DNA of 64,000 bases, from contig JAFUXF010000026.1 in NCBI GenBank assembly GCA_017477185.1, positions 2,215 through 66,214 of the forward strand. Direction: 5' to 3'. Shown here one piece after another: positions 6,901 to 39,784 of the stretch; position 1 is the stretch's first letter; every line of letters begins with the position of its first letter. Source of the DNA: Alphaproteobacteria bacterium. Its GTDB lineage: Bacteria; Pseudomonadota; Alphaproteobacteria; RF32; CAG-239. Made by a program: the position numbers and the translations under genes. The notes beneath the pieces were generated by a model, which was not told where the DNA came from, did not search any database, and saw only the letters and a list, made by a program, of their open reading frames with translations.

Positions 6901-9900
6901 ATCTTTATCAACAACCGTGCCATCAGGCATAATTCTGCCTATTACGTTTCCCGCTTCATCAAAAGCAAATTTACTGACATCAGCCTGACCGATAATGTTT
7001 CCATCTTTATCAACAACTGTTCCGTCTGCTCTAACCATGCCAATAACATTACCGGCAAGATCCACAACTGTTCCATCAGGCAAAACACGACCGATAACAT
7101 TACCATCTTTATCAAAGACTAAATCACTTATATCTGCGTGCCCGATGACTTTTCCATCTTTATCAACGACTGTCCCGTCTGATTTAACACGACCAATTAC
7201 ATTACCGTTCATATCGACAACTGTTCCATCTGTCAGAACTTTTCCGATAATATTGCCATTTTCATCATAAACATACCGATCGCTTGTCGTTTGCGCAATA
7301 ATATTACCATCCTTATCAATTACATCCCCATTATCTTGTAATTTTCCGATAATATTGCCATCTGCATCTACCACATTGCCTTCAGCATCAACGAATCCTA
7401 TAAACTTGCCATTTGCATCAAATAGTTTTGTCATATATGTTTGAGCGTGATAATATTGCAAAGGATGAGCTTTTGCGATAAATTTTCCGGTAGAAGAATT
7501 TATCTCACCTTTGGCATTCAATAAACCTAAAACTTCGCCATTAAAATCTGTTAGTTCACCTTTAAGCGTTAATTCTCCCAAAATCTGATAGCTGTTGTCT
7601 CGAATGATAAAATCTCGATTACCTCGTCCAATCAATTGATTGTCTTTATCAATCAAGAAACCTTGTTTCATTTCTCCTAAATGACTTCCTTGCGGGGATA
7701 GCACATTTCCTTCTTTGGTAATGTACCCCATTACTTTGTTGTCTAAATCATAAATATAAAAATCATATAGGGCATAACCAATATTTCTGCCTTTATTGGT
7801 TATATTACCATAAAAATCAACCTGTCCGAGATTTTCACCCTTAGAATTTGTAACTTGCCCATCTGTGCCAACATATCCAATATATTTATCCTGTAGATTG
7901 AAGGCGACACGATATTTAAATAAATTTCCAATCGGCATACCGTTTTCGGAATTAACATTACCATTAGGTTGCATATACCCTATTATTTTATTTTTACTAT
8001 CGGCTACTTTACCGGTTAAAAGCGTTCTTCCTAAAATTTGTCCTTTAAAATTCATAACCGGATAATATTCAATTTGATGTGCTAAAACTGCGCCATCTGC
8101 ATTTTTTAAATACCCTCTTCTGTCAACACAACCTAAAACTTCATTATTATAATTCAAAACCTGCCCGTTAGCAGAGACGACACCGATAATGTCTCCCGTA
8201 AAATTAATCATAGCATTAGGGAATGCGGCATAGCCTATATATTCTCCGATTTCACTGACAACCTGTCCGTTAGGAAGAATCCGTCCTTGAACAATATCTC
8301 GATAGTTACGAACATATCCTCGCGGTGTTACTACCCCCAAAAATTCGCATTTATCATCAATAATTGAGGCATACTTAACAAGTTGTCCTACCCATACCTG
8401 ATTATTATCAAAAACATCTCGACCGTTTATAATTTTACCCAAAGTGCTTCCCGTAAAATCACGGACAATTCCGTTTACTCCCGTATAACCGAGGATATTT
8501 CCGCTAAAATTCATAACCATTGCATTATTATAGGCATTACCGTTTTTAGGACTGATGATATTTCTGCTACCGGCTTTATCTTCTACTGTCGATAAATCAG
8601 GCAATATTTTCGCGACATAAGAATCGCCACGGCTCACCATATTGTTAACGCCGATTTGACCTAAAAGTTCCCCCTGATTATTAACGACATTTTCAATATC
8701 TAGCACTTTGCCGATAATTTCATTACGTTCGTTAATACTGATGCCTGCTTGCGTTAATTTGCCGACGGTTATCGCATTTTTATTTTGCAAATCTCCGCTC
8801 GGCATAACATAAGAATCAATACTCCCCTTTTCATCATATATGGCGGACAGTCTATAACATCTTCCGGAATTTTTACCATCTGCCGTAAACATATATCCGA
8901 ACGGAGATATAAATTTCTTTTCTCCGTTATCATAAACGATACCATTGATGCCGGCTATTCCTAAAATTTTGTTATTACTATTGACGGAAAGAATATTATC
9001 AAAACTTCCGCCAACTACTCGTCCGGTATTGTCATAAGCGATATTTCCCAACATATAACCGGTTGCCGTACCATCCATTTTAGCAACGATACCGTTTTTC
9101 AGGGCCTGATGCGTTAATGTCCCTTTATAATCGAAAACAGGACCGGAATTGACAACTTTACCAATCAATTCATCATCTTTACCATAAACAAATCCTCTGG
9201 CACCAATATATCCAATGATTTCCGTGGCTCTGGCAACTTTTCCTTCCGGCAGAACACGCCCTAAATAAGTTCCCGAAAAATCTGTTGCTGTGGCAGCAAT
9301 ATCAATTGTTGAACCAATGACTTCTCCGCTATCTTTTACAACCATTCCGTCTGAACGCATTTTGCCTACTAATGTTTCTTTATTGAAAACCTCACCATTA
9401 TAAGTTACAAACCCCAGATATTTCCCTCGATTATCTATAGCATATTTACTACGGACAATACTTCCGATAATGTTTTCACTATCATTGTATACATAACCAT
9501 TTGCTTTAATATGGCCGATATTTTTACCTTCAAAATCAATAACGCTTCCCCCCGGAGCAATACTTCCGATAAAATCTCCTTGATTAGAAACAACCATTTT
9601 TGATGAAATTAAACGCCCCTCTAAAGCGATATCACTACCGATACGACGAAAAGCATATCCGTCTGCAGAAACAAAACCGATTTCTTGTCCTTGCAGATTG
9701 CTGTATGTTCCGTTTCCGGTAAAACGCCCGATTGTTTGTCCATCATCAGAATAGATCAGCCCCGGGAATAAAACGGCACCGATAATATTAAAAAATTCAT
9801 CAATAACCAAGCCGTTTGGTAGAACTCTAGCAACAATTTTTCCTGAAGGGAGGCGAACTGTTCCATCGTTTCCTACTTTTCCCAAAGGTTTATTATCGTT

Positions 9901-10161
9901 GCCGACAGCCACACCTTGCGGAACCACGCCACCAATCACTTTGCCGTTAAAATCAACGATTAAACTGTCCGCGGTTACATTGCCCAGTAATTCATTTTTC
10001 AGCCCAACAACTTTACCATCAGGAATAACTTTACCGATAACTTCACCATTAAAATTTATTGCTGTAATTTCTTGCGCCGATGCTTCTGCGGCTGAAAAAA
10101 CGTTTATTCCGCCGATTAAACCAGCAATAACAATAAATTTTAACATCCATTTTTTTATCAT
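3913..10161 (-). CDS. virB10: giant VirB10/TrbI-domain protein (~2080 aa): signal peptide, ~1600 aa of degenerate 17-aa repeats, Gly-rich linker, VirB10 C-terminal barrel domain, Pro/Ser-rich tail (CagY-like architecture)
   Basis: The C-terminal segment IPAGSHLIGT, ISWERLIRPDGSMF, TADAQGRGGALGYLDQQLFKKY and YVPAGTRIIIYPNTDLW aligns motif-for-motif with the canonical VirB10 barrel (IPRGSLLVGEY / VVWNRLVRPDG / TDALGRAGLSGHVDNHWFERF / IPQGHEFQVY). The likely true start is the internal ATG at 10159..10161 (MIKKWMLKFIVIAGLIGGINVFSAAEASA-QE), which has an SD-like GGATGG upstream. The ORF track extends the frame to 10254. Confidence 0.85.
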   Translation of the reverse strand: MIKKWMLKFIVIAGLIGGINVFSAAEASAQEITAINFNGEVIGKVIPDGKVVGLKNELLGNVTADSLIVDFNGKVIGGVVPQGVAVGNDNKPLGKVGNDGTVRLPSGKIVARVLPNGLVIDEFFNIIGAVLFPGLIYSDDGQTIGRFTGNGTYSNLQGQEIGFVSADGYAFRRIGSDIALEGRLISSKMVVSNQGDFIGSIAPGGSVIDFEGKNIGHIKANGYVYNDSENIIGSIVRSKYAIDNRGKYLGFVTYNGEVFNKETLVGKMRSDGMVVKDSGEVIGSTIDIAATATDFSGTYLGRVLPEGKVARATEIIGYIGARGFVYGKDDELIGKVVNSGPVFDYKGTLTHQALKNGIVAKMDGTATGYMLGNIAYDNTGRVVGGSFDNILSVNSNNKILGIAGINGIVYDNGEKKFISPFGYMFTADGKNSGRCYRLSAIYDEKGSIDSYVMPSGDLQNKNAITVGKLTQAGISINERNEIIGKVLDIENVVNNQGELLGQIGVNNMVSRGDSYVAKILPDLSTVEDKAGSRNIISPKNGNAYNNAMVMNFSGNILGYTGVNGIVRDFTGSTLGKIINGRDVFDNNQVWVGQLVKYASIIDDKCEFLGVVTPRGYVRNYRDIVQGRILPNGQVVSEIGEYIGYAAFPNAMINFTGDIIGVVSANGQVLNYNNEVLGCVDRRGYLKNADGAVLAHQIEYYPVMNFKGQILGRTLLTGKVADSKNKIIGYMQPNGNVNSENGMPIGNLFKYRVAFNLQDKYIGYVGTDGQVTNSKGENLGQVDFYGNITNKGRNIGYALYDFYIYDLDNKVMGYITKEGNVLSPQGSHLGEMKQGFLIDKDNQLIGRGNRDFIIRDNSYQILGELTLKGELTDFNGEVLGLLNAKGEINSSTGKFIAKAHPLQYYHAQTYMTKLFDANGKFIGFVDAEGNVVDADGNIIGKLQDNGDVIDKDGNIIAQTTSDRYVYDENGNIIGKVLTDGTVVDMNGNVIGRVKSDGTVVDKDGKVIGHADISDLVFDKDGNVIGRVLPDGTVVDLAGNVIGMVRADGTVVDKDGNIIGQADVSKFAFDEAGNVIGRIMPDGTVVDKDGNIIGRADDDNLVYDLFCNVVGQVKIDGTVVNSAGKMIGMLSADGRVFDEKDKFLGTAHNHTLILDKSDNIIGKVKMDGVAVDKDDNVIGRLKLNGDVVNKRNKVIGQADAGNFIFNKSEQIIGRINREGMAFNKDRQMIGQINAQGNVVNRKGEVIGQTDITKFAFDKKGNILGKINLRGEIIDKNCKIVSPDTSDGTTVYIYDENGNIIGKILADGTAVDLDGNVIGKIQPDGTVVDADGNVIGYADVSTLAFDENGNVIGHVLSDGSVVDVNGKIIGKVQADGSVIDANGKIIGKVNKTSFAYDEDGNIIGRLLPDGTVVNLGGGLLGHLNAAGEIVDDEGKVLGTVDRANLVYDKDGNLIGRVLEDGTVVDLNGKKIGRVLPDGTVVDADGNVIGRANVSHLAFDEDGNVIGRILPDGTVVDFEGNVIGKVNSSGEIVDENGNVIGRVNANDLVFDENGNIIGRVLPDGTVIDLEGKVIGKVLDDGTVTDINGNIIGHRGRNKLLDPFDTIGRKKVWFSRSPKDKTTKLPKIGVSPEGTEKYRTALGVALTPDGEYLGDIMEDGTVVDKKGNQIGRRTPDGLIIDKEGGLIGIEESTRPQKGAEMFVPQGTFGHGGAYGTGTGPGTNLGPGGGFGPGERYDPQRAAALGAAQQIRRSGMSVGKISSNVDRRSFDGMQEDWSDQGISKTMSSWRVDMSEMILADKPIPAVIARSIDSNHPTPVTAYVERNVYAEEGRNIIIPAGSHLIGTLGGLTGTSETTSVSAKVDISWERLIRPDGSMFKFNGLTADAQGRGGALGYLDQQLFKKYTLPIMTTALTSYASYMMADDENSNGEVETPKQQAANDARENFLQDMNQIFEQILQDKANIKPLTYVPAGTRIIIYPNTDLWMRTEDRNPEGTGTGDDRRSPVLIDDKAVTDKRVREGSGQVVYSGSGGDTPSAAESAPTAKLVDDKPTQTTPAPASATGTLPPPPPPTTSSSSSSNSSIPQLF
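5300..9950 (-). repeat. in-frame degenerate tandem repeat array (~51-bp period; peptide unit ~DxxGNVIGRVLPDGTVV) inside the giant virB10 gene
   Basis: The protein track shows dozens of consecutive GN(V/I)IG(R/K)(V/I)xxDGTV(V/I)D units. The most regular copies are at ~5300..7260, and progressively degenerate copies run toward the N-terminus. The mirror-image plus-strand ORFs (PITLPSxSTTVPSG...) are the antisense reading of the same repeats. Confidence 0.65.
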
Positions 10162-10186
10162 ATTCCATCCAGCCTTTAATTTTTTA

Positions 10187-13100
10187 TCAGTTCCTACGGT
10201 TTTTAGCAACTTCCGGCAAAGCATACCCAGAAATCTGCTTATCCATATTAACAAATGAGCCGTTATTTTTTATGTATCCGCTTTCTTTTCCCATTTCGTC
10301 GACAACAATTCCTTTAGCATTCAATCTCCCGATATATTTGCCTTCATTATTCAATATTGTTGCTCCAATTTTATATATTTTCCCCAAAATATTTTCGTTA
10401 CTATCAACTGCTAAATCGTTAGAGACGACACGTCCGACAACGACACCGCTGTTGTTGGTAATTTTACCATCAAAATTAACATAGCCTACCATTTTATCTG
10501 AGTTATCAATAACAATATCGCCGTCCAAAATATCCCCATACAACTTTCCATTACTGCTGATAACTTGTCCATCAGATAACACTCTGCCGATAACGATATT
10601 TTCTTTGTCGGCAACGGCCCCATTGGGCAGTGTTACGCCAGCTAAATTACCACCGAAATCAATAATTGTACCTCGTTTAAGTAACGTCAAATTTTTATCC
10701 GATGAGCCACCAGGAAGAATTGCAGAAATAACCGTGTTATTCAAATCAAGAACGTCCCCTAATGTGTTTGTATATCCTTGATAATTTCCCCAAATATCTA
10801 CTAAAATATTTTCCGGTAATATTTCACCAATCAATTTTCCTTGTACATCAACAGCTTTACCATCGGAAGTCGTATGCCCGACAACTTTACCATTTACGCT
10901 CAAAATCTCACCATTTTTCAAGCTGTAGCCTAAATATTGACCATCATACCCTACCGCAGCCCCTGTTTTGACAAGACCTCCCAGATATTCTCCTTTGTCA
11001 TTAAAGAAATTACCTTTGCCATCTATTTTTCCAAGTATTGCCCCATACGGACTGACAACTTTTCCATCATAAGATACAAGCCCTAAGCCTTTACCATTGA
11101 AATCAACAACTTGTCCTTGCTCAACGGGAACACCTATTTGATGATTGAAAAATCCAAAACCATCACCTATAATTTTTCCTAAATTACCACCTCTCATATT
11201 ATAAACACTCCCATCAGGGAATAATCTTCCTAAAAATTCTCCTGAAGCATCTATAAAGGAGGTTTTTTCATTCATCAGCACGCCAATAACTTTATTTGAC
11301 GAATCAGCAACTAAATTATTTACAAAAATCTTTCCTGCTTCCTTACCGACTAATCCGATTTCTCCGTTAGAATCGACAATATTGAGGAAATTTCCATTTA
11401 AGTCATACGCATAATTTTTTTCAAGAACATGACCTATGTACTTTCCATCATCATCAAAAACATCGCCATTTATGCCAACGCATCCTATTATATCCGAATT
11501 TGAGGAAACAACGTGATTATCATCAGATATTCGTCCCAAAAACAAACCATCATATCCTATTGCAACACCTTGTTTTCTTATTGCTCCGACAATATCTCCC
11601 TGTTCGTTTAAAACTGTCCCGTCCGGATTTATACAACCGACATACGTTCCTTCCGGTGTTTTAACAATACCATCAGAACCAGCCTCTCCGAGATATACGC
11701 AATTATTATTATATACAGAACCGATTTTGCTTATCTCTCCCACATATTTTCCCGTACTGTCAACGACGACACCATCGAACATAATTTTCAGCTTGGTATC
11801 CGTTATCCCTTTCATAATTTTACCGTTTTTATCAAGGTATCCGATATTTTTACAGCCATACCCGACAGCCATGCCGCTTCGTACCAATTTACCAATAACT
11901 TCCGAACCTGCCGGATCTTTTACCAAACCATTTGCCAAAACCCTGCCTATAACTTGCCCTTCTTTTTCGACAGTTCCTTGATTAGAAATCGTTCCTAAAA
12001 CGCTACCATCAGGAGCTATCGGTAGCATTTGCATCTGCACCAAGGCACCAATACTCTTACTGAATCGGCTTATAATATTCCCTTGAGCATCAATGTAGCC
12101 GATTAATTGACCACTACCATCATAGATTTGACCATCTGATGTTGCATACCCGATAATTCGCCCATTTTTATCCAAAACAAGATTAACGAAATCCCCTGCT
12201 TTGCCGATAATATTACCATTGGCGTCAACCAATGTTCCATCATCAAGCATCTTCCCTAAAATATTTCCTTTAAAGTCCACAACATTTCCGTTTTCATCCA
12301 CATATCCTATGACGTTACCATCTTTATCATAGGCTAACCGCCGCAAATCATCAACACTCAACTCTGACGCATAACCGATGACATTACCATCTTTATCAAC
12401 AACTGTTCCATCAGAAAGAACTGTACCAATAATATTTCCATTGGCATCCACAACATTTCCGTTTTCATCAATATATCCTATCATATTGCCGTTTTTATCA
12501 TAAGCAATTTGCGGCCGATGTGCTGCTTTAGCTGTTCCGATAAGATTGCCTTTTGCATCGTAAATATTACCGTTTTTATCTATTTTACCAATAACGTTTC
12601 CGTTTAAATCCACCATGGTGCCATCCGGATTAACTTTTCCAACTAATTTTCCGTTGGCATCATACATATTACCGTCGGCATCAACATAGCCCATAATCTT
12701 ACCATTAGAATCATATAGAATCTGCTTGGCTGCCTGTTCAATATTTTTTGCTTTTCCGATTAGACGACCATTCGCATCATACATATTGCCGTCTTTATCT
12801 AATTTACCAATAATATTTCCTTTTAAATCAGTAATTGTTCCATCCGGATTAACCTTTCCTATCAGCCTACCGCTGGCATCATACATATTACCATCGGCAT
12901 CTATTCGACCAATAATATTGCCATTATTATCATACAAAATTTTTTCTTTATTTTTGGATGCTGCGGCTTTTCCAATAACGTTGCCATTATTATCCACCAC
13001 CGTGCCATCAGCCAACATCCGTCCTATAGCATTTCCATCCTTATCGACAACTGTTCCATCCGGATTAACATAACCAATGACTTTACCGTTAGCATCATAA

Positions 13101-14380
13101 ACTAATCGACGATTTTCGTCGGCATGCCCTTTTATATTTTTAGTAATAACATTGCCATCTTTGTCAATAAAGCCAACGACCTTCCCATCTTTATCAACGA
13201 CGCTGCCATCAGGCATCACAATACCTAAAACATGTCCGTCTTTATCTATTGCAACACGGCCTTGCTTACTGACGCGCCCGAGGATTTTTCCATCAAGTCC
13301 GATAACCTCACCATTCTTATTTAGGCGACCAATCACATTTCCTTCGCTATCAACCACACTACCATCTGATAAAACACGCCCGATAATATTACCATTTTCA
13401 TCATAAACAAAACCGGCATCAACAGCTTGTCCGATAACATTTCCATCGGCATCAACAACTGTCCCGTCAGGTAACGCTCTTCCTATTATTTTTCCGTTTG
13501 CATCAACAACCGTTCCATCTGCGAGAACTCTACCAATGACATTGCCATTTGCATCATAAACTAATCGCTGATTTTCTGCCACTCCAATAATATTGCCGTT
13601 TTCATCTACAATCATGCCATTGGCATTAACTCTTCCTATTACATTGCCATCGGCATCTCGAACATACCCGTCCTCATCTATTGTGCCAAGAATTTCACCA
13701 TTAGCTCCTATTGCATAACGAACATTTGTATTTGAAGCAGGTGTCCCCTTTGCTAACCCAAGACTTGTCGGATCACAAAAATTACAATCTTCTTTGAGAA
13801 TCGCTTTACCCTCAACAGGCACTTTTTGCGATTTATTGCTCCCTGAACTTAAATTAGCTTCACGCCATGTAATAATAAAATTATTTTGAACATTACCGGC
13901 AACGACAGGTACCCAGTTCATTGTTATATCACAAGTCTGATGACCTCTTAACACTTGGTTACTGCACTCTTCTTTGAACGAAAAGCCATCAAAAGGCGGC
14001 TCGGCTAGTTCAACCGAGACAATACGAACACTGACCCGTCCTGTTGTCCCTATCGTCAACACATTTTTAGCATCTGTTCCAATTACAACTTGCCCCATAG
14101 CGATAGGATTAGGTGTTGTTGTAATTGGTAATTCTCCATTATCAACCGTTTCAAATTCTATACTTTCCTGAATCGGGTCTTCACTCCGGATATCTAAGGC
14201 ATCATCACTTGCCGTAAATACCGGTGCCATATATTGCTCCTCTTCCTCCTCATCACGCATTAAAAGTAATAAACCAAGAATAAAAATGACTAAAGAAATA
14301 ACACCAACCATAATAATTATATGGTTAGTTTTTCTTACATAATTTTCTGATCTGGTTAAAATTTCTCTTTCATCTTTCAT
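10187..14380 (-). CDS. giant membrane-anchored repeat protein (1397 aa) with the same GNVIGRV..DGTVVD repeat family
   Basis: The N-terminus MKDEREILTRSENYVRKTNH plus TM IIIMVGVISLVIFILGLLLLM gives a type II anchor, like the VirB10 N-terminus. It is followed by an acidic stretch, a Cys-containing domain, then ~35 repeat units. The gene lies between virB9 and the giant virB10, separated from the latter by a 25-nt spacer. Confidence 0.7.
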   Translation of the reverse strand: MKDEREILTRSENYVRKTNHIIIMVGVISLVIFILGLLLLMRDEEEEEQYMAPVFTASDDALDIRSEDPIQESIEFETVDNGELPITTTPNPIAMGQVVIGTDAKNVLTIGTTGRVSVRIVSVELAEPPFDGFSFKEECSNQVLRGHQTCDITMNWVPVVAGNVQNNFIITWREANLSSGSNKSQKVPVEGKAILKEDCNFCDPTSLGLAKGTPASNTNVRYAIGANGEILGTIDEDGYVRDADGNVIGRVNANGMIVDENGNIIGVAENQRLVYDANGNVIGRVLADGTVVDANGKIIGRALPDGTVVDADGNVIGQAVDAGFVYDENGNIIGRVLSDGSVVDSEGNVIGRLNKNGEVIGLDGKILGRVSKQGRVAIDKDGHVLGIVMPDGSVVDKDGKVVGFIDKDGNVITKNIKGHADENRRLVYDANGKVIGYVNPDGTVVDKDGNAIGRMLADGTVVDNNGNVIGKAAASKNKEKILYDNNGNIIGRIDADGNMYDASGRLIGKVNPDGTITDLKGNIIGKLDKDGNMYDANGRLIGKAKNIEQAAKQILYDSNGKIMGYVDADGNMYDANGKLVGKVNPDGTMVDLNGNVIGKIDKNGNIYDAKGNLIGTAKAAHRPQIAYDKNGNMIGYIDENGNVVDANGNIIGTVLSDGTVVDKDGNVIGYASELSVDDLRRLAYDKDGNVIGYVDENGNVVDFKGNILGKMLDDGTLVDANGNIIGKAGDFVNLVLDKNGRIIGYATSDGQIYDGSGQLIGYIDAQGNIISRFSKSIGALVQMQMLPIAPDGSVLGTISNQGTVEKEGQVIGRVLANGLVKDPAGSEVIGKLVRSGMAVGYGCKNIGYLDKNGKIMKGITDTKLKIMFDGVVVDSTGKYVGEISKIGSVYNNNCVYLGEAGSDGIVKTPEGTYVGCINPDGTVLNEQGDIVGAIRKQGVAIGYDGLFLGRISDDNHVVSSNSDIIGCVGINGDVFDDDGKYIGHVLEKNYAYDLNGNFLNIVDSNGEIGLVGKEAGKIFVNNLVADSSNKVIGVLMNEKTSFIDASGEFLGRLFPDGSVYNMRGGNLGKIIGDGFGFFNHQIGVPVEQGQVVDFNGKGLGLVSYDGKVVSPYGAILGKIDGKGNFFNDKGEYLGGLVKTGAAVGYDGQYLGYSLKNGEILSVNGKVVGHTTSDGKAVDVQGKLIGEILPENILVDIWGNYQGYTNTLGDVLDLNNTVISAILPGGSSDKNLTLLKRGTIIDFGGNLAGVTLPNGAVADKENIVIGRVLSDGQVISSNGKLYGDILDGDIVIDNSDKMVGYVNFDGKITNNSGVVVGRVVSNDLAVDSNENILGKIYKIGATILNNEGKYIGRLNAKGIVVDEMGKESGYIKNNGSFVNMDKQISGYALPEVAKNRRN
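10300..13710 (-). repeat. in-frame degenerate tandem repeat array (same ~17-aa family) inside the 1397-aa gene
   Basis: Repeated DANGNVIGRVLADGTVVD / DENGNIIGRVLSDGSVVD-type units are visible in the translation. Degeneracy increases toward the C-terminus. Confidence 0.6.
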
Positions 14381-15960
14381 TGCGTTCTAACCACGCTGCA
14401 AAATACACCATTTCTTCCTAATCGACTGCAGACATCATCACCTTCCTGCAACGTCTCAATCGGACCAACTCTTAAATGAAACAGTTCTTTTCCTTGTCCG
14501 TCAGCAGCCGCATCAACCGAGAAAAATGGTTCATATTGTTTTAATGTATCAGAATATTTTTTAGATAACGAGCCCCATAAGCTCTCTAAATTACTGACAT
14601 TACTATCTGTCCCCAACTCTATAGATATATTGCTGTTGTCTGCAAACATCAGTCCTTGTCCTTTACCTCCTCTGTTAGCATAACTGCCTTCCGGTGCATA
14701 ATTTCCGTCGTTTGTAATACGTTGCATATTGGCATAATCAAAATCCCCCTGATTATTTCCATATCCAGGACGATAAGTAATATTCACGCCACCGTTTGGA
14801 TTTTGGCTGTAATTTGATAAAACAAAATTTCCACTGCCACTTGACATATTGTCTCCACCACTATTATCACCCAATCCGCCATTCTTGCCTGGGATTGGGG
14901 CCGGAACTTGCCATTGATGTTCATCTAAATCTTTAGTAGTCGGTGCAAATTCTAATCCGGCTTCATCAGAACGTCTCAATTTCAGACAAACCATTCTCTT
15001 ACCATTCCGCATAACCATATCGCCTATACCCTCAACGATGATTAAGCGATTATTGGGTCCTTTTGTTCTAAAGCCAACCGGCACTTCCAGACGTTCAACA
15101 ATCAGCGTTACGATAGGGCGTTGCGTCATTGTCAATGATTTTTCCCCTAAATCAATATAAGTAAAAATATCATCTCGCCATACTCGTTCCGGTGCAATGA
15201 CAACATCCTCAGGATTTGGAATATAGACTTCAACATCAAACCTAAATTTTGAAGCATCTAGAGGAATAGATTTTATCCAATCTTCTCTTTGAAAACTTTT
15301 AGTAAATAAAGAATCGACAGATTTATTCGGCCCACCTCTATAGGTTGAGGCATTTACTCCGCTGTGTCCACCAATACTTCCCGCAGAAACTCCTGCACCA
15401 CGAGATCCTGACGGACCGTCAATCACATCAACATCGATAATTGAGTTTGTCAGTCGTTCTGTGTTTACCCCTTCACTCTTCAGATAAAAGACATACTTAT
15501 TACCGCTTCTGCCAAAGATCACAATATTTGTATCCACTCCAACATTTGCTCCTTTTTTAGGATAAAGGAGCACTGTGTTCGGACCGGAAATTTGTCCGTC
15601 AAAGCTCGAGCTATCACCTAAATAAATATCCTCAACTAATTCCCAACTCGGAAAATTAAGTAAAGTAATCATTCCTTCTCTCACACGAATTGGCAATATT
15701 AAATCCGGAGACCAATAATATTTGGAATAAGCAGGCTTGCTTTGCCCTTCTCCCAAGTTTTGCAACGGATCAAGCCACGCACTTTGCGTCATTCCCAAAG
15801 CATTAAAGCCGGCATATCCCATATTCATAGGCATGTACATTCCCTGACTCTGATCAGCATTCTGATCCAAGCTCCCCATAGTTGCCTGAGAGCGTGCATT
15901 TTGAGTACCGCTCATTATGATGATAATTAAAAATAAAATTCGACCAAATGCCTTAATCAT
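14377..15960 (-). CDS. virB9: enlarged VirB9-like protein (527 aa): signal peptide, VirB9 N-domain, G/N-rich spacer, possible C-terminal SPOR-like domain
   Basis: The VirB9 N-domain pattern is present (GDSSSFDGQISGPNTVLLYPKKGANVGVDTNIVIFGRSGNKYVFYLKS, resembling 'gn.l.vKP...TNL.V.Td.r.Y.F.L'). The C-terminal ...GKELFHLRVGPIETLQEGDDVCSRLGRNGVFCSVV resembles the yRVrvGPf...A..lC..L...G..C.vv end of SPOR domains. The size is comparable to CagX-type VirB9 proteins. Confidence 0.7.
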   Translation of the reverse strand: MIKAFGRILFLIIIIMSGTQNARSQATMGSLDQNADQSQGMYMPMNMGYAGFNALGMTQSAWLDPLQNLGEGQSKPAYSKYYWSPDLILPIRVREGMITLLNFPSWELVEDIYLGDSSSFDGQISGPNTVLLYPKKGANVGVDTNIVIFGRSGNKYVFYLKSEGVNTERLTNSIIDVDVIDGPSGSRGAGVSAGSIGGHSGVNASTYRGGPNKSVDSLFTKSFQREDWIKSIPLDASKFRFDVEVYIPNPEDVVIAPERVWRDDIFTYIDLGEKSLTMTQRPIVTLIVERLEVPVGFRTKGPNNRLIIVEGIGDMVMRNGKRMVCLKLRRSDEAGLEFAPTTKDLDEHQWQVPAPIPGKNGGLGDNSGGDNMSSGSGNFVLSNYSQNPNGGVNITYRPGYGNNQGDFDYANMQRITNDGNYAPEGSYANRGGKGQGLMFADNSNISIELGTDSNVSNLESLWGSLSKKYSDTLKQYEPFFSVDAAADGQGKELFHLRVGPIETLQEGDDVCSRLGRNGVFCSVVRTQ

Positions 15961-15970
15961 TATTTTAACC

Positions 15971-16720
15971 TTATTTTGATTTATTACGCATTAAAGAATA
16001 TTGTACCACTGTAAATCCTACAGGATTATTCAAACGATCATTAAACTTGACAGATTTTCGGCGATAAACCACACGCAAAGATGCTGTCCAATAATTAATC
16101 TCCGGTGCAGATGATGACGGATACATATCTGTCGTTTCGTATTCTACTTGCCACAAACCGCGTCCCAGCTCATTAACTGTCAAAATATTAACTCTTCGCT
16201 GTAATCCTCTTTGTCGAACCAAATCTAAAGCTCGCCTAGCCGTTTTATTAATAAACTCATCATATACAGCAGATGATGACATTTCCTGAATTGGACCACC
16301 CGGAAGCCAGCGAACTTCCATTTCTGCCTCATCATTAACAATTGTGCTGCGTTGGAGAACATAACTTCGAACAAATGTTTCCGTAATGGATTTGTTTTCG
16401 ACTAAATCTCCACTGTAAGGTACAATATTATATATTTGTTCTTCTTTATTTTGAAATGTCAGCAAATACGGCTCAACTCTAAACAAAGGAATAACCTGAG
16501 CAATAGCAAGTAACAAAACAATATTACAGCATAAACTGACAACCATGATAACAGCAAAAGCACGCGCTGTCCACAAATAACGTTTTTCGTTATTATTTGC
16601 AACAAACACATTTTCTTGTTGAGGACGGCGCATTTGAGAACGCGAACTATTGTTCAGATTTGCTCTGCCTATCAGTTTCTGCTCGCTATTATTACCAAGC
16701 TGATTTGCCATCTGTCGCAT
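15971..16720 (-). CDS. virB8: VirB8-family protein (paralogue 2; bitopic, NTF2-like)
   Basis: Single TM (FAVIMVVSLCCNIVLLLAIAQVIPLF) after a cytoplasmic N-terminus. The C-terminal signature NNPVGFTVVQYS matches the VirB8 NPxGFxVxxY motif. Confidence 0.8.
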   Translation of the reverse strand: MRQMANQLGNNSEQKLIGRANLNNSSRSQMRRPQQENVFVANNNEKRYLWTARAFAVIMVVSLCCNIVLLLAIAQVIPLFRVEPYLLTFQNKEEQIYNIVPYSGDLVENKSITETFVRSYVLQRSTIVNDEAEMEVRWLPGGPIQEMSSSAVYDEFINKTARRALDLVRQRGLQRRVNILTVNELGRGLWQVEYETTDMYPSSSAPEINYWTASLRVVYRRKSVKFNDRLNNPVGFTVVQYSLMRNKSK

Positions 16721-16726
16721 TTCCTA

Positions 16727-16930
16727 TTAAATTGTTTCAATAAACCAATCCGGCAAATCTTTAGGTAATTCAATATGCATACATGCACAAGGTGATAATT
16801 TTAATTCATCCACACCTTTACCCACGCCTACGGGTTCAGCCTCATAATATGACCCAAAAATACCACAGGAGGGCAACATTATGACTGCAACTACCATTAT
16901 AATTTTTTTTATCATTCTGAGATACCTCAT
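16727..16930 (-). CDS. small lipoprotein (67 aa), VirB7-like by position between the two virB8 genes
   Basis: Signal peptide MIKKIIMVVAVIMLPSC-G with Cys at the cleavage position, and a short mature part. Its position corresponds to VirB7 in T4SS operons. Confidence 0.4.
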   Translation of the reverse strand: MRYLRMIKKIIMVVAVIMLPSCGIFGSYYEAEPVGVGKGVDELKLSPCACMHIELPKDLPDWFIETI

Positions 16931-17013
16931 AATTAGTATACTAAACCAGCTAGTTTGAGGTTATACTCTTTTAAATTAAATGTCTAACATCATCTGAGAA
17001 TATCAACAAAGAA

Positions 17014-17769
17014 TTATAAACCCTCTACTTGAGTTTGCGAATAACGAAGAACTGTAAAGCCTAACGGATTGATAAGACGCATACCGGAAAACATACGCTC
17101 TTTAATAAATACTGCCGTGATTGAAGCTGTCCAATACCGAACTGTCATTAACATATCTTGCGAAACATTATTTGTTTCTTTAGGGCTCAGCATATAAGTC
17201 TTAAAATCAACTTTCCAAACGGGACTATGTTGTCCACCGATACGGCGTACCGCAATAATTTCTGTTTCTTGTACAATGCCCTTACCGATAACATCATTCC
17301 ATAGTTTATCTCTGTAAACTGAAAATTCATCAAAAACATATGGGGAAGACAGAAAATTTACCATACCTCCCGGCAACCATCTGTTACGCATTTCTATTTC
17401 ATCGTTTATAATGGTATTGCGCAACTCTATATATTGGCGAATATACATATCGACCAATTTATCTCTTGAGGGCATATTTATCCCTATGCTTTCTGCACGC
17501 ACAATACCTTCACTGCTATCCTGAGATACTACTAAAAACGGCTTTACCGTTACTTGCGGGGCTAGTCGAAAAAGGGCTAGTGATGCGCTGGTAAATAAGG
17601 ACAAAGACAATATGGTTAAAAAAATGAAAAAACGCACTAACCACATATAATACTTGAGTTTAAAGTTTTTTTCATCTTGTTCATATTGTTCGATAAATTC
17701 CAGACGGTGTTCTCTATTTCCATCTGTAATTTCTAAAATTCGACTTCCTTCTAGTTTATTTACAGCCAT
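17014..17769 (-). CDS. virB8: VirB8-family protein (paralogue 1)
   Basis: TM FFIFLTILSLSLFTSASLALF. C-terminal INPLGFTVLRYS VirB8 signature. Clearly diverged from the second copy, so both are likely functional. Confidence 0.8.
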   Translation of the reverse strand: MAVNKLEGSRILEITDGNREHRLEFIEQYEQDEKNFKLKYYMWLVRFFIFLTILSLSLFTSASLALFRLAPQVTVKPFLVVSQDSSEGIVRAESIGINMPSRDKLVDMYIRQYIELRNTIINDEIEMRNRWLPGGMVNFLSSPYVFDEFSVYRDKLWNDVIGKGIVQETEIIAVRRIGGQHSPVWKVDFKTYMLSPKETNNVSQDMLMTVRYWTASITAVFIKERMFSGMRLINPLGFTVLRYSQTQVEGL

Positions 17770-17778
17770 TTTCCTTCC

Positions 17779-20700
17779 CTAAAAATTGCCTGCGAGTTGT
17801 GAACAATAGATATTACCGATCTGATGCAACATACGCTTGAATTCCTTATCTGCCTCTTGTTTTTGTTTCGCTAAAACTTGACGATTTGTCTTTTCCGATT
17901 TTATTTTTTCCTCTAAATCAGCATCTGCTTTTGAGTTATCTGATACAACAGTATATGCTCCGTCATCTTTTTGGAAGACTTTTATCAAATCATTTATTTT
18001 CTGTATTCTTTGTTCAATAATCTCATTGTTATTATTTTGAAATGTCTTGACTTGAGAGGCGGCTGTAGAGATTAATTGGTTACGATACCTCATCAAAGTT
18101 TCATATGCTAATTTGTAGTCATCTTCATTAGCTAAATCAAAATCTTGTGCCGGCGTAAAACCGATTTTAGTAAATAATTCATATAAAGGTTTTTTGGCTT
18201 TTTCAATTTCAAACTGCATTTCAGCTTTGTTTTGACGACTCTGTTGCTCGTAATCTGCTCGCTTTAAGAAATCTCCGATTTGATTTTGGTGTAAACTGGC
18301 AATATCAAATAAAATATCTTTTTGCTCTATTTCTGTATTCGAATCTTTGTGGACATCTGACAGGCGTTGGAAAACATCTTTTGCCAATGCGTTATATTTT
18401 AAGCCATTATCGTATGTTAATATGTGTCCCAGCTCACTCATATTTTGTGAGGGTTTAAACTCACTTAATGATTTTACTTCAGCTATACCTGAAACATCAT
18501 CTGCAAGATTTTTCACGGTATAGTACAATCCTTTTCCTGATACTTCAATATCATAGCATGGATTGCATCCTTCCGCTTCAAGTTTTTTCCAGATTTGAGT
18601 TTCTTTTTCTTTTTGCTCTGTATCAAACATTCTGGCTGTAGCCGTGTATAATCTGTATCTATCCCCTGTTGAAGTAACCAAAAAATTTTTGTATAAACAC
18701 GGAAACATTCCGCCACTGGCCAGTCTTTCAACAGAAGGACGAATGACCGTACTTAAATCTATTTCTTTTTCAACATACGCCGGTTTTCTTAAAATATATT
18801 TCCAAATTTCGGGAACAAACGCGAGGTTGTTCAGTACACCTTCTGATGTAACCAATCCTGATGCACTTCTTGGAATATTGTCATATGTTCCGTAATCGAA
18901 ATAAAGGGTTTCCCTTATCGTCGGCAACGGAACATCCGGAACGGACTTCGGGGCACGGAAATCGCGGTGTTTACCTTCATTACTAACAAAATATTCAACA
19001 TCCGGTTCTTGACAATAATTATGCAAGCAGGCTTCTTCTACAATATATTTTTGGTAAATTGCTCGCAATAAAGACATAATCTCCCCATATGAGCTGTATG
19101 CACCGATATTTGAACTGTATTCAGTCAGTTCTTTTGTCGGCAATTCTCTCAGCTTGTTCATCAATTGCTTATGAATATCAACAACTTGTCTATGATTGTT
19201 GGGATTGTATAAACTATCTCCCATTGCATAAAGCTGATCAATTGTATCTTTTACCAATTCCTCTGCCACACCTCTTGTATCTACAACCAACTGATTAGCA
19301 TTGTTAAGTATTTCCGGTAAGCTAAAAAGATAGGGCGTTTCATCATCAATCATTGTCGGAACGCTAAAATGACTTTGAAAATATGAACTTAAATCCAAAT
19401 TCTTTACTTGGTCAATGGTATCAGCATACCTTTTTTCTTCATCTTGAATTTTATTATCATTTGCAACTGTTATCGCATTAGCCTCATTGGCATATGCATC
19501 ATTAACTTTTTGAATAGATAAAGGTATCTCCGTTTCTAATTTTGTTTTAAGTATATTTAATTGAGCTGTTGTTTCTTCTATCTTTTGATTAACATCAGCT
19601 AACTTTTGTTTTAGGGCTAATACTTTTTCTCGGTTTTCGCTCAAAACATTTTCCGTTTCGGCAATTGCATCAGGTTCATCATACTCTGTTTCAGTTATTT
19701 GAGTCTCGCTTCTTATATAAGTTTTGACAGATGAATCTTCATCTGCTTTTGGTGCTGTTTGCGAAAGCTGAGCATTTACAAGTTGTTGTGTTTGGCGATA
19801 AATTCCTTGTTCTATAAAGTAGCTTTGCTTTTCATTATCTGCCGGCAATTCTTTTTGATAAGTTTCCGTTGAGTTTTCTATCGCCTTAATACCAAGCCCA
19901 TCTTTTTCTTTTTGCAGTAATGTTTTTATTTTAGTCTCTGCACCGGATATTATTGTTTCAGCTTGTAAAATTTCTTCTTCCAGATCTTGTCTTTGAATAT
20001 TTAATGCATCTAACTGAGCTTGACTTCGATTTATTTTATTTACGAGTGTTTCTTTTTCTCGCTCAATATTAGCTAATTGCTGCTCTTTCCTATTATATAA
20101 AGCGTTTAATTTTTCTTTTTCTTCCGCAACCAGAGCATCAACATTATTGGTTATATTATTATTTTCCCTTAAAACTTTATCTTGCAAAAGTGCTAAAGCA
20201 TCAGCATTGTGTTGTTTTTCATCATAGTCCTCAACTAAATTATTCAGTTGTTCGGCAACTTTTAATGTTACTTCCAGGACATTAATTGCATTTAAGCGTT
20301 GTATGATTTTATCGTATTTTCCTTCTATATACTGATTGTAATAAGATTGCGTATCTTTCCATACGGGATAGGCTTTTTTTATTCTTCCCCACTTGCCGTT
20401 TATACCATTTTCTGCCTGATCCTTTGCTAGCATTTTGGCTGCTTCTGAACCGATATTCCATGCTAATTTTTCGCTGGCTTTGAGTTCTTCATCAACCTTC
20501 TTCTCTTTTGCTGCATTTTTAAAACCACCGCTTTTTTTATTAATTTGTGATTTAAGGCGGTCAGCTTGACTTAAATCAGAGCTATCAACCCCCTCCGTAG
20601 AAACGTTTAATTCACTAAAATCATCTGCTTCAGCAACAACTCCTGTATCTATTGCTTTTGCCACATTATATGCCTTTAGTGCCCAACCGGAAATTCCTTT

Positions 20701-21984
20701 ACGTTTTTCACTATTCGCAATTTGTTCATCCGATAATCCGCCATTCCACATCTGGTGCGGATTTTCGTACATTCCGCCAAAATAAGTTATAGCGCACTGT
20801 TCTGAATTTTTGAGAGCCTCTAAGGCTTTTGCATGTATCTTTTTAGCTTTATCATAATTGTTATATAGTTCTTGAATTGTCGACAACCCTTTGGTTTGAT
20901 TGTGAATTTCAATCGCTTTATTAAGTAAGGCTTGAGCTTTATTGATTTGTTCTATACTTGCTAAATTTTCACGGTTTGCAGCATAAGGCGTTTCCAGTTT
21001 GCTTTGAGAAGGAACAAAATTGACAGCTCTTTTGTACTTAGGTTTGGTTTCCTTTTTATTATTTTCGGTATTCTTCATAGTTGAGGCGTTAAGTTCTAGC
21101 TCTTGATTTTGTACAAGCGCGGCTTCAGGATTTTTCATTATTTGAGCAAACGACAATTTTTGTATCTGTTTAGTATATGTCGCCATTTTAATGGTTGCCT
21201 GTTCATTATTCCATGCATTTTCATCACTATCTTCCTCCGGCAACATCGGTTGTACCATACCTGAGCCGATAGCTTGAACGGCAATATATTGCGTTCGCAT
21301 TGCTTCTATTTCTTGAATAATTTTCAATAATGAGTTCATCGTTTCATAAGTATTGTAGGCATTTTTCCAAACGGCATTTTCATCCTGCTCCTCTTGCATA
21401 CCGTTTTTGCCCTCTTTGACAGCTGTTTCAAGTTCTGTAATTGATGTCTCAATTTCATCAAACTTTTTTTCTAATTCTCTGGTAGAAGCATAAAGCTCAA
21501 TGATGCTGTCTTGATAAAACTCAGTCGCCAAATCACGATAAGCCTGACAAATCATTTTATACTCTTCACGATCAGTTTTAGTACAATCTACAGGATACTG
21601 AAAGAACAGTTCATAAACAGCTTCCATAATGGAGGCTTTGTCGTAAATATCATATTTTTTTGATTCTTTAAATTCTTTTGTCCCCGGTAAAGGTTGCTTT
21701 TCCTTTTTTTTGAAAATGCCCCCCATAAATCCGGTAAATTTCCCTGTATATTTGCTGATTGTTGCTTTTGCTTGCTGATTGATGGTCTGCATATAAGCAC
21801 CAGCTTGAGCTGTTACATTCTGTATATTGACTGTTACGGTATCCATAAAAAAGGTTACATCACTGACAACATCTACAGTCGGCGTTAGGGGTCCGGGGGG
21901 GAGAAGAAACGCTCTAACCCCATGACTAAAACTGACGCATAAAACGGCAACAATCAGAAATATTTTTGCTTTAGTCAATTTCAT
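17779..21984 (-). CDS. secreted 1401-aa coiled-coil protein (signal peptide plus long heptad-rich helical regions), unknown T4SS-associated function
   Basis: N-terminal signal peptide MKLTKAKIFLIVAVLCVSFSHGVRA. It is rich in E/K/Q/L heptads and has no TM segments or enzymatic motifs. It occupies the slot between virB8 and the virB4-proximal genes. Confidence 0.6.
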   Translation of the reverse strand: MKLTKAKIFLIVAVLCVSFSHGVRAFLLPPGPLTPTVDVVSDVTFFMDTVTVNIQNVTAQAGAYMQTINQQAKATISKYTGKFTGFMGGIFKKKEKQPLPGTKEFKESKKYDIYDKASIMEAVYELFFQYPVDCTKTDREEYKMICQAYRDLATEFYQDSIIELYASTRELEKKFDEIETSITELETAVKEGKNGMQEEQDENAVWKNAYNTYETMNSLLKIIQEIEAMRTQYIAVQAIGSGMVQPMLPEEDSDENAWNNEQATIKMATYTKQIQKLSFAQIMKNPEAALVQNQELELNASTMKNTENNKKETKPKYKRAVNFVPSQSKLETPYAANRENLASIEQINKAQALLNKAIEIHNQTKGLSTIQELYNNYDKAKKIHAKALEALKNSEQCAITYFGGMYENPHQMWNGGLSDEQIANSEKRKGISGWALKAYNVAKAIDTGVVAEADDFSELNVSTEGVDSSDLSQADRLKSQINKKSGGFKNAAKEKKVDEELKASEKLAWNIGSEAAKMLAKDQAENGINGKWGRIKKAYPVWKDTQSYYNQYIEGKYDKIIQRLNAINVLEVTLKVAEQLNNLVEDYDEKQHNADALALLQDKVLRENNNITNNVDALVAEEKEKLNALYNRKEQQLANIEREKETLVNKINRSQAQLDALNIQRQDLEEEILQAETIISGAETKIKTLLQKEKDGLGIKAIENSTETYQKELPADNEKQSYFIEQGIYRQTQQLVNAQLSQTAPKADEDSSVKTYIRSETQITETEYDEPDAIAETENVLSENREKVLALKQKLADVNQKIEETTAQLNILKTKLETEIPLSIQKVNDAYANEANAITVANDNKIQDEEKRYADTIDQVKNLDLSSYFQSHFSVPTMIDDETPYLFSLPEILNNANQLVVDTRGVAEELVKDTIDQLYAMGDSLYNPNNHRQVVDIHKQLMNKLRELPTKELTEYSSNIGAYSSYGEIMSLLRAIYQKYIVEEACLHNYCQEPDVEYFVSNEGKHRDFRAPKSVPDVPLPTIRETLYFDYGTYDNIPRSASGLVTSEGVLNNLAFVPEIWKYILRKPAYVEKEIDLSTVIRPSVERLASGGMFPCLYKNFLVTSTGDRYRLYTATARMFDTEQKEKETQIWKKLEAEGCNPCYDIEVSGKGLYYTVKNLADDVSGIAEVKSLSEFKPSQNMSELGHILTYDNGLKYNALAKDVFQRLSDVHKDSNTEIEQKDILFDIASLHQNQIGDFLKRADYEQQSRQNKAEMQFEIEKAKKPLYELFTKIGFTPAQDFDLANEDDYKLAYETLMRYRNQLISTAASQVKTFQNNNNEIIEQRIQKINDLIKVFQKDDGAYTVVSDNSKADADLEEKIKSEKTNRQVLAKQKQEADKEFKRMLHQIGNIYCSQLAGNF

Positions 21985-30070: not shown

Positions 30071-30071
30071 G

Positions 30072-31187: not shown

Positions 31188-31198
31188 GTGTTTTTTCC

Positions 31199-32875: not shown

Positions 32876-32881
32876 TTGTCA

Positions 32882-35603: not shown

Positions 35604-35622
35604 CGGTTTTCCTCTTTTATTC

Positions 35623-37290: not shown

Positions 37291-37291
37291 T

Positions 37292-38005: not shown

Positions 38006-38012
38006 TTACAGC

Positions 38013-39707: not shown

Positions 39708-39741
39708 TTTTTTTATTTTTTTGTTTTTTAGCTAAAAATCT

Positions 39742-39769
39742 CTTGATTTTTACCCTTTTAAATTATAAT
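39742..39769 (+). promoter_or_regulatory. sigma70-like promoter candidate for the tRNA-Arg gene (TTGATT, ~15-16 nt spacer, perfect TATAAT)
   Basis: cTTGATTtttacccttttaaatTATAATc ends 15 nt before the tRNA 5' end. The AT-rich palindromic -10 could also serve the divergent minus-strand operon. Confidence 0.3.
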
Positions 39770-39784
39770 CAAAAAAAACGAGGT

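Follow-up and report, generated by a model that had tools for sequence, protein, structure and literature searches.

Paired VirB8 paralogues, a mini-lipoprotein and a VirB9 with a SPOR-like tail in a chromosomal type IV secretion locus of gut Alphaproteobacteria

Genes of the VirB8–lipoprotein–VirB8–VirB9 module

The sequence analysed here, referred to as the window, is a stretch of 64,000 nucleotides (64 kb) of an Alphaproteobacteria bacterium (assembly GCA_017477185.1, contig JAFUXF010000026.1, positions 2,215 to 66,214), which carries a long minus-strand locus for a VirB-type type IV secretion system (T4SS). Four adjacent genes in the middle of this locus are the subject of this study, namely two virB8 paralogues, a small lipoprotein gene lying between them and an enlarged virB9. 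An earlier note, made from the sequence alone, had drawn attention to them, and all four open reading frames (ORFs; 251, 67, 249 and 527 aa) were recovered on the minus strand at 14377–17769, exactly where it had placed them. In order of transcription they encode the upstream VirB8 (17014–17769), the mini-lipoprotein in the VirB7 position (16727–16930), the downstream VirB8 (15971–16720) and a VirB9/TrbG homologue (14377–15960). The gaps between them are 83 nt, 6 nt and 10 nt, respectively, and the stop codon of virB9 overlaps the start of the following gene (ATGA). No terminator-like site was found within 14377–17769. A promoter-like site on the minus strand (TTCGCA-17-TATAAT, 17013–17041, ten of twelve hexamer positions matching) is situated where the upstream virB8 ends, before the gap of 83 nt. 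Since such sites were not enriched in the region (16 observed against 12.9 ± 3.4 in shuffled sequences), it is only a hint of an internal start.

Both VirB8 proteins matched PF04335 well above its cut-off of 23.2 bits, the upstream copy with 55.7 bits (E 7.6e-15) and the downstream copy with 75.4 bits (E 7.6e-21). They were found to be 30% identical over 211 aa (BLASTP E 3e-33), with a profile–profile E value of 2e-43, in agreement with the earlier description of them as clearly different paralogues and not near-identical copies. A hydropathy scan indicated that both are bitopic, with a single hydrophobic segment at residues ~48–66 of the upstream and ~55–73 of the downstream protein; the upstream copy consists of a cytoplasmic tail, one transmembrane (TM) segment and a periplasmic NTF2-like domain. 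The C-terminal ends read INPLGFTVLRY in the upstream and NNPVGFTVVQY in the downstream copy and contain the NPXG motif, a dimerisation motif near the VirB8 C-terminus (PMC4676284). In 22 orthologues of each copy the N, G and F of this motif are invariant (N234, G237 and F238 in the upstream protein) and the P is invariant or at least 90% conserved. Profiles of the two families matched the solved structures of the Bartonella, Brucella and Agrobacterium VirB8 proteins, TrwG and TraE in the PDB (E 4.5e-10 to 5e-4), with the downstream family being the better match to the Bartonella structures (E 4.5e-10).

The 67-aa ORF encodes a signal peptide followed by a lipobox cysteine (MLPSC), which bears out the proposal of a lipoprotein at the VirB7 position. 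Translation probably begins at the second ATG (16915), where a GAGG lies 9 nt upstream; the precursor would then have 62 aa, as in most orthologues. An alignment of 31 orthologues showed a basic n-region, a hydrophobic core and a lipobox in the form of LSAC, LTAC or LSSC, with the LPSC of the subclade of the window being unusual at position −2. The mature protein has ~43–46 residues with the invariant elements FGSYYE, ELKLSPC(A/S)C and P(D/S)WF, read in the window after the lipobox cysteine as FGSYYE...ELKLSPCAC...PDWFIETI; both cysteines of the SPCAC motif are invariant. No match to the lipoprotein was obtained in Pfam or NCBIfam, its sequence lacks the P[ILV]NK motif for VirB9 binding, and sequence homology to the characterised proteins VirB7, TraN and RvhB7 was not detected. 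In particular, RvhB7 of Rickettsia was rejected as a homologue: although both proteins have a K-S-P-C-like motif, its score of 4–5 bits lies within that obtained with shuffled sequences (99th percentile 5.7).

A hidden Markov model (HMM) of the lipoprotein did, on the other hand, match a small ORF lying directly upstream of the single virB8 in two alphaproteobacterial plasmids of Microvirga and Erythrobacter (E 1e-11 to 1e-13). Because of this homology to the ORF that precedes the only VirB8 in plasmid T4SSs, the lipoprotein, which is small and of outer-membrane type, is regarded as a VirB7 equivalent and, judged from gene order and sequence, stands at the usual place of VirB7 in a genuinely conjugative family. 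VirB7 proteins in general are known to show no detectable conservation (PMC2653234), and the missing similarity therefore lowers the case for a VirB7 homologue but not for a protein acting as VirB7.

VirB9 architecture and its SPOR-like tail

The VirB9 homologue matched PF03524 over residues 79–326 (profile positions 4–195 of 198, 43.6 bits against a cut-off of 34.2, E 4e-11), as did all 62 aligned orthologues. The earlier note had called it oversized, and at 527 aa it is indeed about twice the usual length. An N-terminal hydrophobic signal peptide is followed by a conserved extension of ~55 aa and by the N-terminal beta domain (residues 79–176; 15433–15726, minus strand, as for all parts of the gene). 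This domain is covered by the Pfam match, its beta strands were modelled with a predicted local distance difference test score (pLDDT) of 59–73, and its rate of nonsynonymous substitution (dN) against orthologues, 0.02–0.10, is among the lowest of the gene. A Gly/Ser-rich stretch of ~50 aa separates it from the C-terminal beta-sandwich domain (residues 228–330; 14971–15279), which is likewise covered by the Pfam match. Thereafter comes a low-complexity, Gly/Ser/Asn-rich linker of ~115 aa (residues 331–443; 14632–14970; pLDDT below 50), variable in both sequence and length, with the highest dN of the gene (0.33–0.70); the alignment occupies 647 columns for proteins of ~530 aa. The protein ends in an 84-aa domain (residues 444–527; 14380–14631) which is almost invariant across the orthologues. 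Altogether 1312 VirB9 homologues were detected, and the best 120 of the 1312 are 60–88% identical to the protein of the window and 514–574 aa long.

The beta-sandwich domain contains a cysteine, Cys325, that is invariant in the 62 VirB9 sequences and that was aligned by BLASTP with a cysteine of R. bellii VirB9a (C241 in Rickettsia VirB9a). The Rickettsia residue is the predicted disulfide partner of VirB7, equivalent to C262 of A. tumefaciens (PMC2653234). As Cys325 aligns with a cysteine known for bridging to VirB7, a disulfide between it and the SPC cysteine of the lipoprotein is plausible.

The earlier note had also suggested that the end of VirB9 resembles a SPOR domain, and profile and fold searches both upheld this. 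PF05036 (SPOR) matched residues 446–525 marginally (E 3.8e-4, 21.2 bits against a gathering score of 21) and matched 58 of the 62 orthologues (E up to 0.01, best E 2.7e-6). The AlphaFold2 (AF2) model of the tail alone had a pLDDT of 84 and a beta-alpha-beta-beta-alpha-beta topology. With Foldseek against the PDB, its three best matches were all SPOR domains, namely that of CwlC (1x60) and two of RlpA (6i09 and 6i05), with target-normalised template modelling scores of 0.73–0.76 and root-mean-square deviations of 2.5–3.4 Å; DedD was found lower down the list. A long disordered linker before a terminal SPOR domain is the usual context of this fold (PMC6895207). On these grounds the tail is assigned as a SPOR-fold domain, and its predicted binding to denuded glycan is likely, if unproven.

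Invariant residues of the tail include E448, H495, R497, C511, C521 and R525. H495, R497 and R525 lie on strands beta3 and beta4 and could supply the basic patch of other SPOR domains. SPOR domains share less than 20% identity with one another and the residues of the basic patch are not positionally conserved (PMC6895207). E448 was placed by means of the coordinates of the Pfam match (residues 446–525 on profile positions 6–76) together with the x-Q-x-G pattern. An alignment of the tail with a sequence of the E. coli FtsN SPOR domain (hhalign) was weak and partial, around the GP motif, and was not used as evidence.

Homologous tails were also found outside the nearest relatives. The loci of distant metagenome-assembled genomes (MAGs) carry the tail with E values of 1e-27 to 1e-41 against the family HMM, although the tail of the distant orthologue in locus L035 scored 17.7 bits with the SPOR profile, below its threshold. 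The VirB9 tail of the Erythrobacter plasmid is homologous to that of the window (hhalign E 1.8e-5), and that of the Microvirga plasmid gave no significant match to the tail profile (hhalign E 0.45) and no SPOR match. It should be noted that the Microvirga VirB9 (plasmid pMVF16-3; 26441–28093 of locus L034; 550 aa) has a long Pro/Ala-rich linker and a C-terminal segment of ~85 aa ending in a cysteine pair (C-x8-C, against C-x9-C in the window); this segment may represent the domain of the window's tail after strong divergence.

Distribution, origin and genomic setting

A scan that took one genome per species found 33 loci of this type. Nearly all of the hosts are labelled as uncultured Alphaproteobacteria from the guts of human, ruminant, chicken and mouse, the labels including 'Candidatus Scatocola', 'uncultured Azospirillum sp.' and 'Rhodospirillales'. 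In every locus spanning the region the order is a 1401-aa protein, VirB8, lipoprotein, VirB8, VirB9, a giant repeat protein, VirB10 and VirB11, and the core of this order, from the upstream VirB8 to the giant protein, was also found in the distant MAG loci L035, L041 and L042. The T4SS is stably kept across a large clade of uncultured Alphaproteobacteria from gut and rumen. Three of the loci (L013, L031 and L033) sit in records labelled Lactobacillaceae, Eubacteriales and Bacteroidaceae; as these loci are ordinary members of the family, mis-binned or mislabelled MAGs are most likely the cause, and not lateral transfer. In the pattern scan each genome yielded a single VirB9 locus, two contigs of MAG RUG14194 looking like two pieces of one gene. 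In some distant MAG lineages the T4SS is scattered into islets, as is rvh, the T4SS of Rickettsiales, in Rickettsia.

Identity to the window across the loci was 36–76% for the upstream VirB8, 48–78% for the downstream VirB8, 55–80% for VirB9, 58–91% for the lipoprotein and 76–92% for VirB11. The upstream VirB8 is therefore the faster-evolving copy. For all four genes dN (0.06–0.43) was far below the synonymous rate (dS, above 1), which indicates that they are under purifying selection. The dS values are saturated and only the ranking of dN is informative; it rises from the core domains of VirB9 through the lipoprotein and SPOR tail, the downstream VirB8 and the upstream VirB8 to the VirB9 linker.

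The closest annotated VirB4 proteins are those of a Microvirga megaplasmid (38% identity) and an Erythrobacter megaplasmid (35%), namely the plasmids of Microvirga sp. VF16 (pMVF16-3) and Erythrobacter aureus YH-07. Both encode a MobA/MobL relaxase, VirB2–VirB4, one VirB8, VirB9–VirB11 and VirD4, and the ORF just upstream of virB8 in each is a lipoprotein of 58 or 68 aa with the motif K-x-(S/T)-P-C-A-C. A single VirB8 was also found in one lineage related to the window (locus L038, 6546–16867), where only lipoprotein–VirB8–VirB9–VirB10–VirB11 is present at the locus and the lipoprotein gene follows a ComM-like gene. All upstream-type VirB8 proteins examined, even those only ~26–36% identical to the copy in the window, sit in the order VirB8–lipoprotein–VirB8–VirB9.

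Two explanations of the VirB8 pair other than an old duplication within this T4SS lineage have to be weighed. That the pair reflects an error of assembly or a recent tandem duplication has a negligible probability and was rejected: the adjacency of two genes of one family is all that speaks for it, while the copies share just 30% of their residues, both recur in more than 33 independent assemblies as well as in three distant MAG lineages, and each forms a family of its own (71% bootstrap for monophyly of the upstream copy). Synteny, identity and a dN far below dS together make the duplication old, with both copies kept, and exclude an artefact. Within the T4SS family the duplication lies deep; in neighbour-joining (NJ) trees, an origin preceding or following the separation from the plasmid VirB8s received bootstrap values of 43% against 30%.

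The other explanation is that the locus is a true relative of rvh, with its order inherited from a common ancestor. The earlier note had likened the order B8-B7-B8-B9-B10-B11 to that of rvh and this was correct, as the R. typhi genes are arranged in the groups rvhB9-I and rvhB8-II, then rvhB7, rvhB8-I, rvhB9-II, rvhB10 and rvhB11, then rvhD4 (PMC4676284). An inherited order would also fit the alphaproteobacterial host, the position of the more divergent VirB8 upstream in both systems, the cysteine at the VirB7-bridging position of both VirB9 proteins and the short motif common to RvhB7 and the lipoprotein. The sequences themselves, however, do not suggest such kinship. With Rickettsia sequences taken from Figure S9 of PMC2653234, the VirB8 profiles of the window scored 21–27 bits against RvhB8-I and −1 to 24 bits against RvhB8-II, but 72–137 bits against the single VirB8 proteins of Paracaedimonas and of the Erythrobacter and Microvirga plasmids. 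RvhB8-I and RvhB8-II grouped together against all others in 83% of 500 NJ bootstraps, and the pairings that a common duplication would predict, with the upstream copy joining RvhB8-II and the downstream copy joining RvhB8-I, were recovered in 1% and 0%, though distance trees on proteins this divergent can mislead. In PDB searches with each VirB8 and each family profile, the R. typhi RvhB8-II structure was unmatched at E values up to 10; this protein has lost NPXG and forms an atypical dimer (PMC4676284). The score of RvhB7 within the shuffled range, the presence of one VirB4, one VirB9 and no VirB6 in the window and the existence of relatives with a single VirB8 likewise speak against common descent, which is considered very improbable. 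The sequence comparisons indicate that the duplication arose within this T4SS lineage independently of that in rvh, and the B8-B7-B8 arrangement is best read as a parallel invention, so that of the earlier suggestion the gene order stands, while kinship is not supported.

In order of transcription, the locus of the window begins with a VirB3-like ORF, VirB4, a 797-aa coiled-coil protein with a weak TrbJ-like match and a 226-aa protein. These are followed by a 549-aa protein (21996–23645, minus strand) and a 1401-aa secreted coiled-coil protein (17779–21984), which occupies the VirB6 position and has no family match, and then by the four genes described above. The last ~80 residues of the 549-aa protein contain two hydrophobic helices and match the TrbC/VirB2 pilins weakly (E 4.7e-4, below the Pfam cut-off); they are preceded by a coiled-coil region of ~440 aa with a signal peptide, and a pro-region or fusion of such length would be unusual in a T4SS pilin. 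Following virB9 are a 1397-aa beta-flower protein, a 2113-aa VirB10 and VirB11. The two giant proteins (3913–14380, minus strand) are present in every related locus with sizes of ~1140 to 2730 aa. The former has a VirB10-like N-terminal membrane anchor and otherwise only beta-flower/RHS-like repeats (PF21785, E 3e-102), and the latter has the same repeats together with a C-terminal TrbI domain (residues 1822–2011), its enlargement recalling that of CagY. The TTG annotated as the start of the VirB10 ORF gives a 68-nt overlap with the gene before it, and translation probably begins further downstream. Just downstream of virB11, an extremely acidic 562-aa protein (1136–2824, minus strand) with three copies of EEYEWEYV(D/E) and no family match could be a substrate or chaperone-like partner of the T4SS.

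Directly upstream of the T4SS lies a type IVb pilus cluster (29531–39861) encoding a PilS-like pilin, T2SSF, a T2SSE ATPase, a PilO-like protein, a secretin and TcpQ, and ending beside a tRNA-Arg(CCT) gene (39785–39861). A thin pilus alongside a T4SS is also a feature of IncI plasmids, of which this pairing is reminiscent, but the T4SS of the window belongs to type IVA and lies on the chromosome. Elsewhere the window consists of chromosomal housekeeping genes. VirB4 and VirB9 are each encoded once in its 64 kb, within which no VirB6-like polytopic protein, VirD4, relaxase or VirB1 transglycosylase was found.

Proposed role and comparison with known systems

It is proposed, with a probability of roughly 60%, that the products of the four genes form the scaffold spanning the periplasm in a chromosomal T4SS of VirB type (type IVA), the outer-membrane ring of which is tethered to or positioned on the cell wall. 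The lipoprotein would cap the C-terminal domain of VirB9 in the outer-membrane core complex, perhaps through the disulfide between its SPC cysteine and Cys325, as in VirB7–VirB9 of Agrobacterium. The two VirB8 copies, which share NPXG but differ in their cytoplasmic tails, would probably fill non-equivalent positions in one machine and form a hetero-oligomeric ring located between the inner-membrane and core complexes. Suspended by the flexible linker from the outer-membrane ring, the SPOR-like tail would bind the peptidoglycan sacculus, which may anchor the machine or confine it to a region of the wall such as the septum or a new pole.

Several points weigh against this proposal, and peptidoglycan binding by the tail is inferred and the weakest step of the overall picture. 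The Pfam SPOR score exceeds its threshold by just 0.2 bits; the profile of the tail, searched against PDB sequences, found no solved SPOR domain and only a chance match to deoxyguanosine kinase; and the beta-alpha-beta-beta-alpha-beta fold is common, with ferredoxin-like proteins following the SPOR matches in the fold search. In known SPOR domains a Gln on beta1 (RlpA Q270, FtsN Q251, DamX Q351), the one residue with high conservation among them, forms hydrogen bonds to the lactyl group of N-acetylmuramic acid and the acetyl group of N-acetylglucosamine (PMC6895207). In the tail this glycan-contacting position is E448 (ISIELGTD), invariant in the 62 sequences, and the position equivalent to the Phe of RlpA (F274) is D452; a Glu and an Asp at these places could weaken or change glycan binding. 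The AF2 model of full-length VirB9, built from the 62 orthologues, had a mean pLDDT of 46 and was usable for the tail only, and the geometry is thus assumed, just as the lipoprotein–VirB9 disulfide and the mixed VirB8 ring are matters of inference. Finally, VirB6, VirD4 and VirB1 were not found in the 64-kb window, and the genes present there may not amount to a complete machine.

The substitutions at the glycan-contact positions also form the basis of a different reading of the tail, considered unlikely, in which the SPOR fold has been reused and the ligand is a modified glycan (for example one that is de-N-acetylated and cationic), the neighbouring giant beta-flower proteins or another T4SS subunit; the tail would then be an assembly or gating module and not a wall anchor. 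Both residues are invariant where RlpA has Q270 and F274, and the acidic residue is kept in distant relatives (ISIEISSD in L035, ISVELGSD in L041 and YEVDLGSG in Erythrobacter). In simulations the RlpA SPOR domain loses de-N-acetylated glycan as the hydrogen bond of Q270 is lost (PMC6895207), which makes this position critical for holding the glycan. In all of the MAG loci the tail is accompanied by the giant repeat proteins, yet the Erythrobacter plasmid T4SS has a homologous tail and no giant beta-flower proteins, so that the tail is independent of them. In favour of wall binding, the invariant H495, R497 and R525 could still form a basic patch, and SPOR domains are very dissimilar to each other in sequence, with no fixed positions for the patch.

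As to the VirB8 pair, the copies may not act in one machine. The upstream copy could be a regulatory or alternative-state subunit, as has been proposed for the rvh-II proteins, or it could belong to the upstream pilus and surface module and be transcribed apart from the lipoprotein–VirB8–VirB9 unit; even jointly these two variants are judged improbable. The faster evolution of the upstream copy, seen in both its identity range and its dN, would suit them, as would the 83-nt gap (~70–240 nt elsewhere) with its promoter-like site, next to gaps of only 6–10 nt among the other three genes. In locus L041 (10001–20708) the T4SS genes begin with the upstream virB8, which follows unrelated genes for hydrolases, and a predicted operon boundary of R. 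typhi falls at the same place (PMC4676284). However, the upstream copy keeps its TM segment, EMxxRWxPGG and NPxGF, all invariant or nearly so, while RvhB8-II has lost NPXG and dimerises in an atypical way (PMC4676284); the region holds no terminator-like site; and the two copies are strictly adjacent in every lineage examined, which points to co-function.

A more far-reaching form of the proposal, regarded as doubtful, would have the tail represent a new SPOR specificity class, with Glu for Gln, that reads the chemical state of the sacculus and so sites a giant T4SS, and the VirB8 proteins an obligate hetero-oligomeric ring sized for it. If true, the module would be a convergent solution to that of the Rickettsiales rvh, in abundant uncultured gut Alphaproteobacteria. 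In the literature searched, no paper was found connecting SPOR with VirB9 or T4SSs, reporting this locus from gut Alphaproteobacteria, or bearing on beta-flower proteins together with a T4SS, and a recent review of T4SS nomenclature mentions neither SPOR nor rvh. It should also be noted that the pair of PF05036 and PF03524 is already precomputed in the database for many of these VirB9 proteins, and the fusion is therefore visible to anyone looking.

The fusion of a wall-binding fold to VirB9, undescribed in the literature searched, would offer a simple route to anchoring or positioning a type IVA machine. The arrangement VirB8-VirB7-VirB8, formerly regarded as part of the Rickettsiales signature, appears to have arisen independently in another alphaproteobacterial T4SS lineage; such an independent origin, together with stability over deep divergence, argues that the paired layout has a structural purpose, and the locus provides a second system for asking what the second VirB8 does. 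The hosts are widespread and their biology is almost unknown, and a large conserved chromosomal T4SS with giant repeat proteins is a lead to their cell–cell interactions.

Among known systems, the T4SSs of the Microvirga and Erythrobacter plasmids are the nearest. They share with the window the order lipoprotein–VirB8–VirB9–VirB10–VirB11 and the homologous mini-lipoprotein, their VirB9 is also enlarged (550 aa in Microvirga and 432 aa in Erythrobacter), and their VirB8 proteins score 92–137 bits against the profiles of both paralogues. They differ in having one VirB8, a VirB10 of normal size (529–590 aa), no annotated beta-flower giant and, at the VirB6 position, a protein of 428–453 aa with no Pfam match, whereas the locus of the window is chromosomal with two VirB8s, a giant repeat protein, a 2113-aa VirB10 and no relaxase, VirD4 or VirB6 detectable in the 64 kb. 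The rvh system resembles the window in the local order from VirB8 to VirB11, in the faster-evolving VirB8 lying upstream, in a possible transcription break before the VirB7 gene and in the VirB9 cysteine at the VirB7-bridging position. Its two VirB8 proteins, however, are ~18% identical and RvhB8-II is without NPXG, against 30% identity and NPXG in both copies of the window, and RvhB9-II is truncated where the VirB9 of the window is enlarged. The rvh systems have duplicated VirB4 and VirB9, multicopy VirB6 and no VirB5 (PMC11077975); the hosts here are gut Alphaproteobacteria and not Rickettsiales, and no duplicated VirB4 or VirB9 and no multicopy VirB6 were seen in the 64-kb window.

The tail has the same fold as the SPOR domains of FtsN, DamX, DedD, RlpA and CwlC and stands, as is usual for SPOR, at a C-terminus behind a long disordered linker of low complexity. 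It contains a cysteine pair, C511 and C521, and a functionally relevant disulfide is present in the FtsN SPOR domain as well. Unlike those SPOR domains, it is fused to an outer-membrane subunit of a secretion system instead of a division protein or hydrolase, has Glu in place of the conserved Gln and Asp for the Phe equivalent, and found no solved SPOR domain by sequence. The earlier note had further likened the enlarged VirB9 to CagX of H. pylori and spoken of cag-like inflation. The likeness holds for size, CagX being a VirB9 homologue of ~520 aa after which the matching Pfam family is named, but not for the cause of the enlargement. CagX (522 aa) has a 130-aa internal periplasmic insertion at residues 131–260 (PMC13417560), while the VirB9 of the window owes its size to the N-terminal extension, two low-complexity stretches and the C-terminal SPOR-like domain; nor was the CagX chain found in a PDB sequence search with this VirB9, the sole match being X. 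citri VirB9. The closest functional precedent is DotK (IcmN), an OmpA-like lipoprotein associated with the core complex that binds peptidoglycan and helps to keep the Legionella Dot/Icm T4SS at the poles (PMC10266036), a role of the kind proposed above for the tail of VirB9. DotK and the tail are not homologous, DotK being a separate OmpA-like lipoprotein of a type IVB system and the candidate of the window a domain of VirB9 itself, with the SPOR fold and in a type IVA system, but the latter may position its machine on the wall in much the same way.

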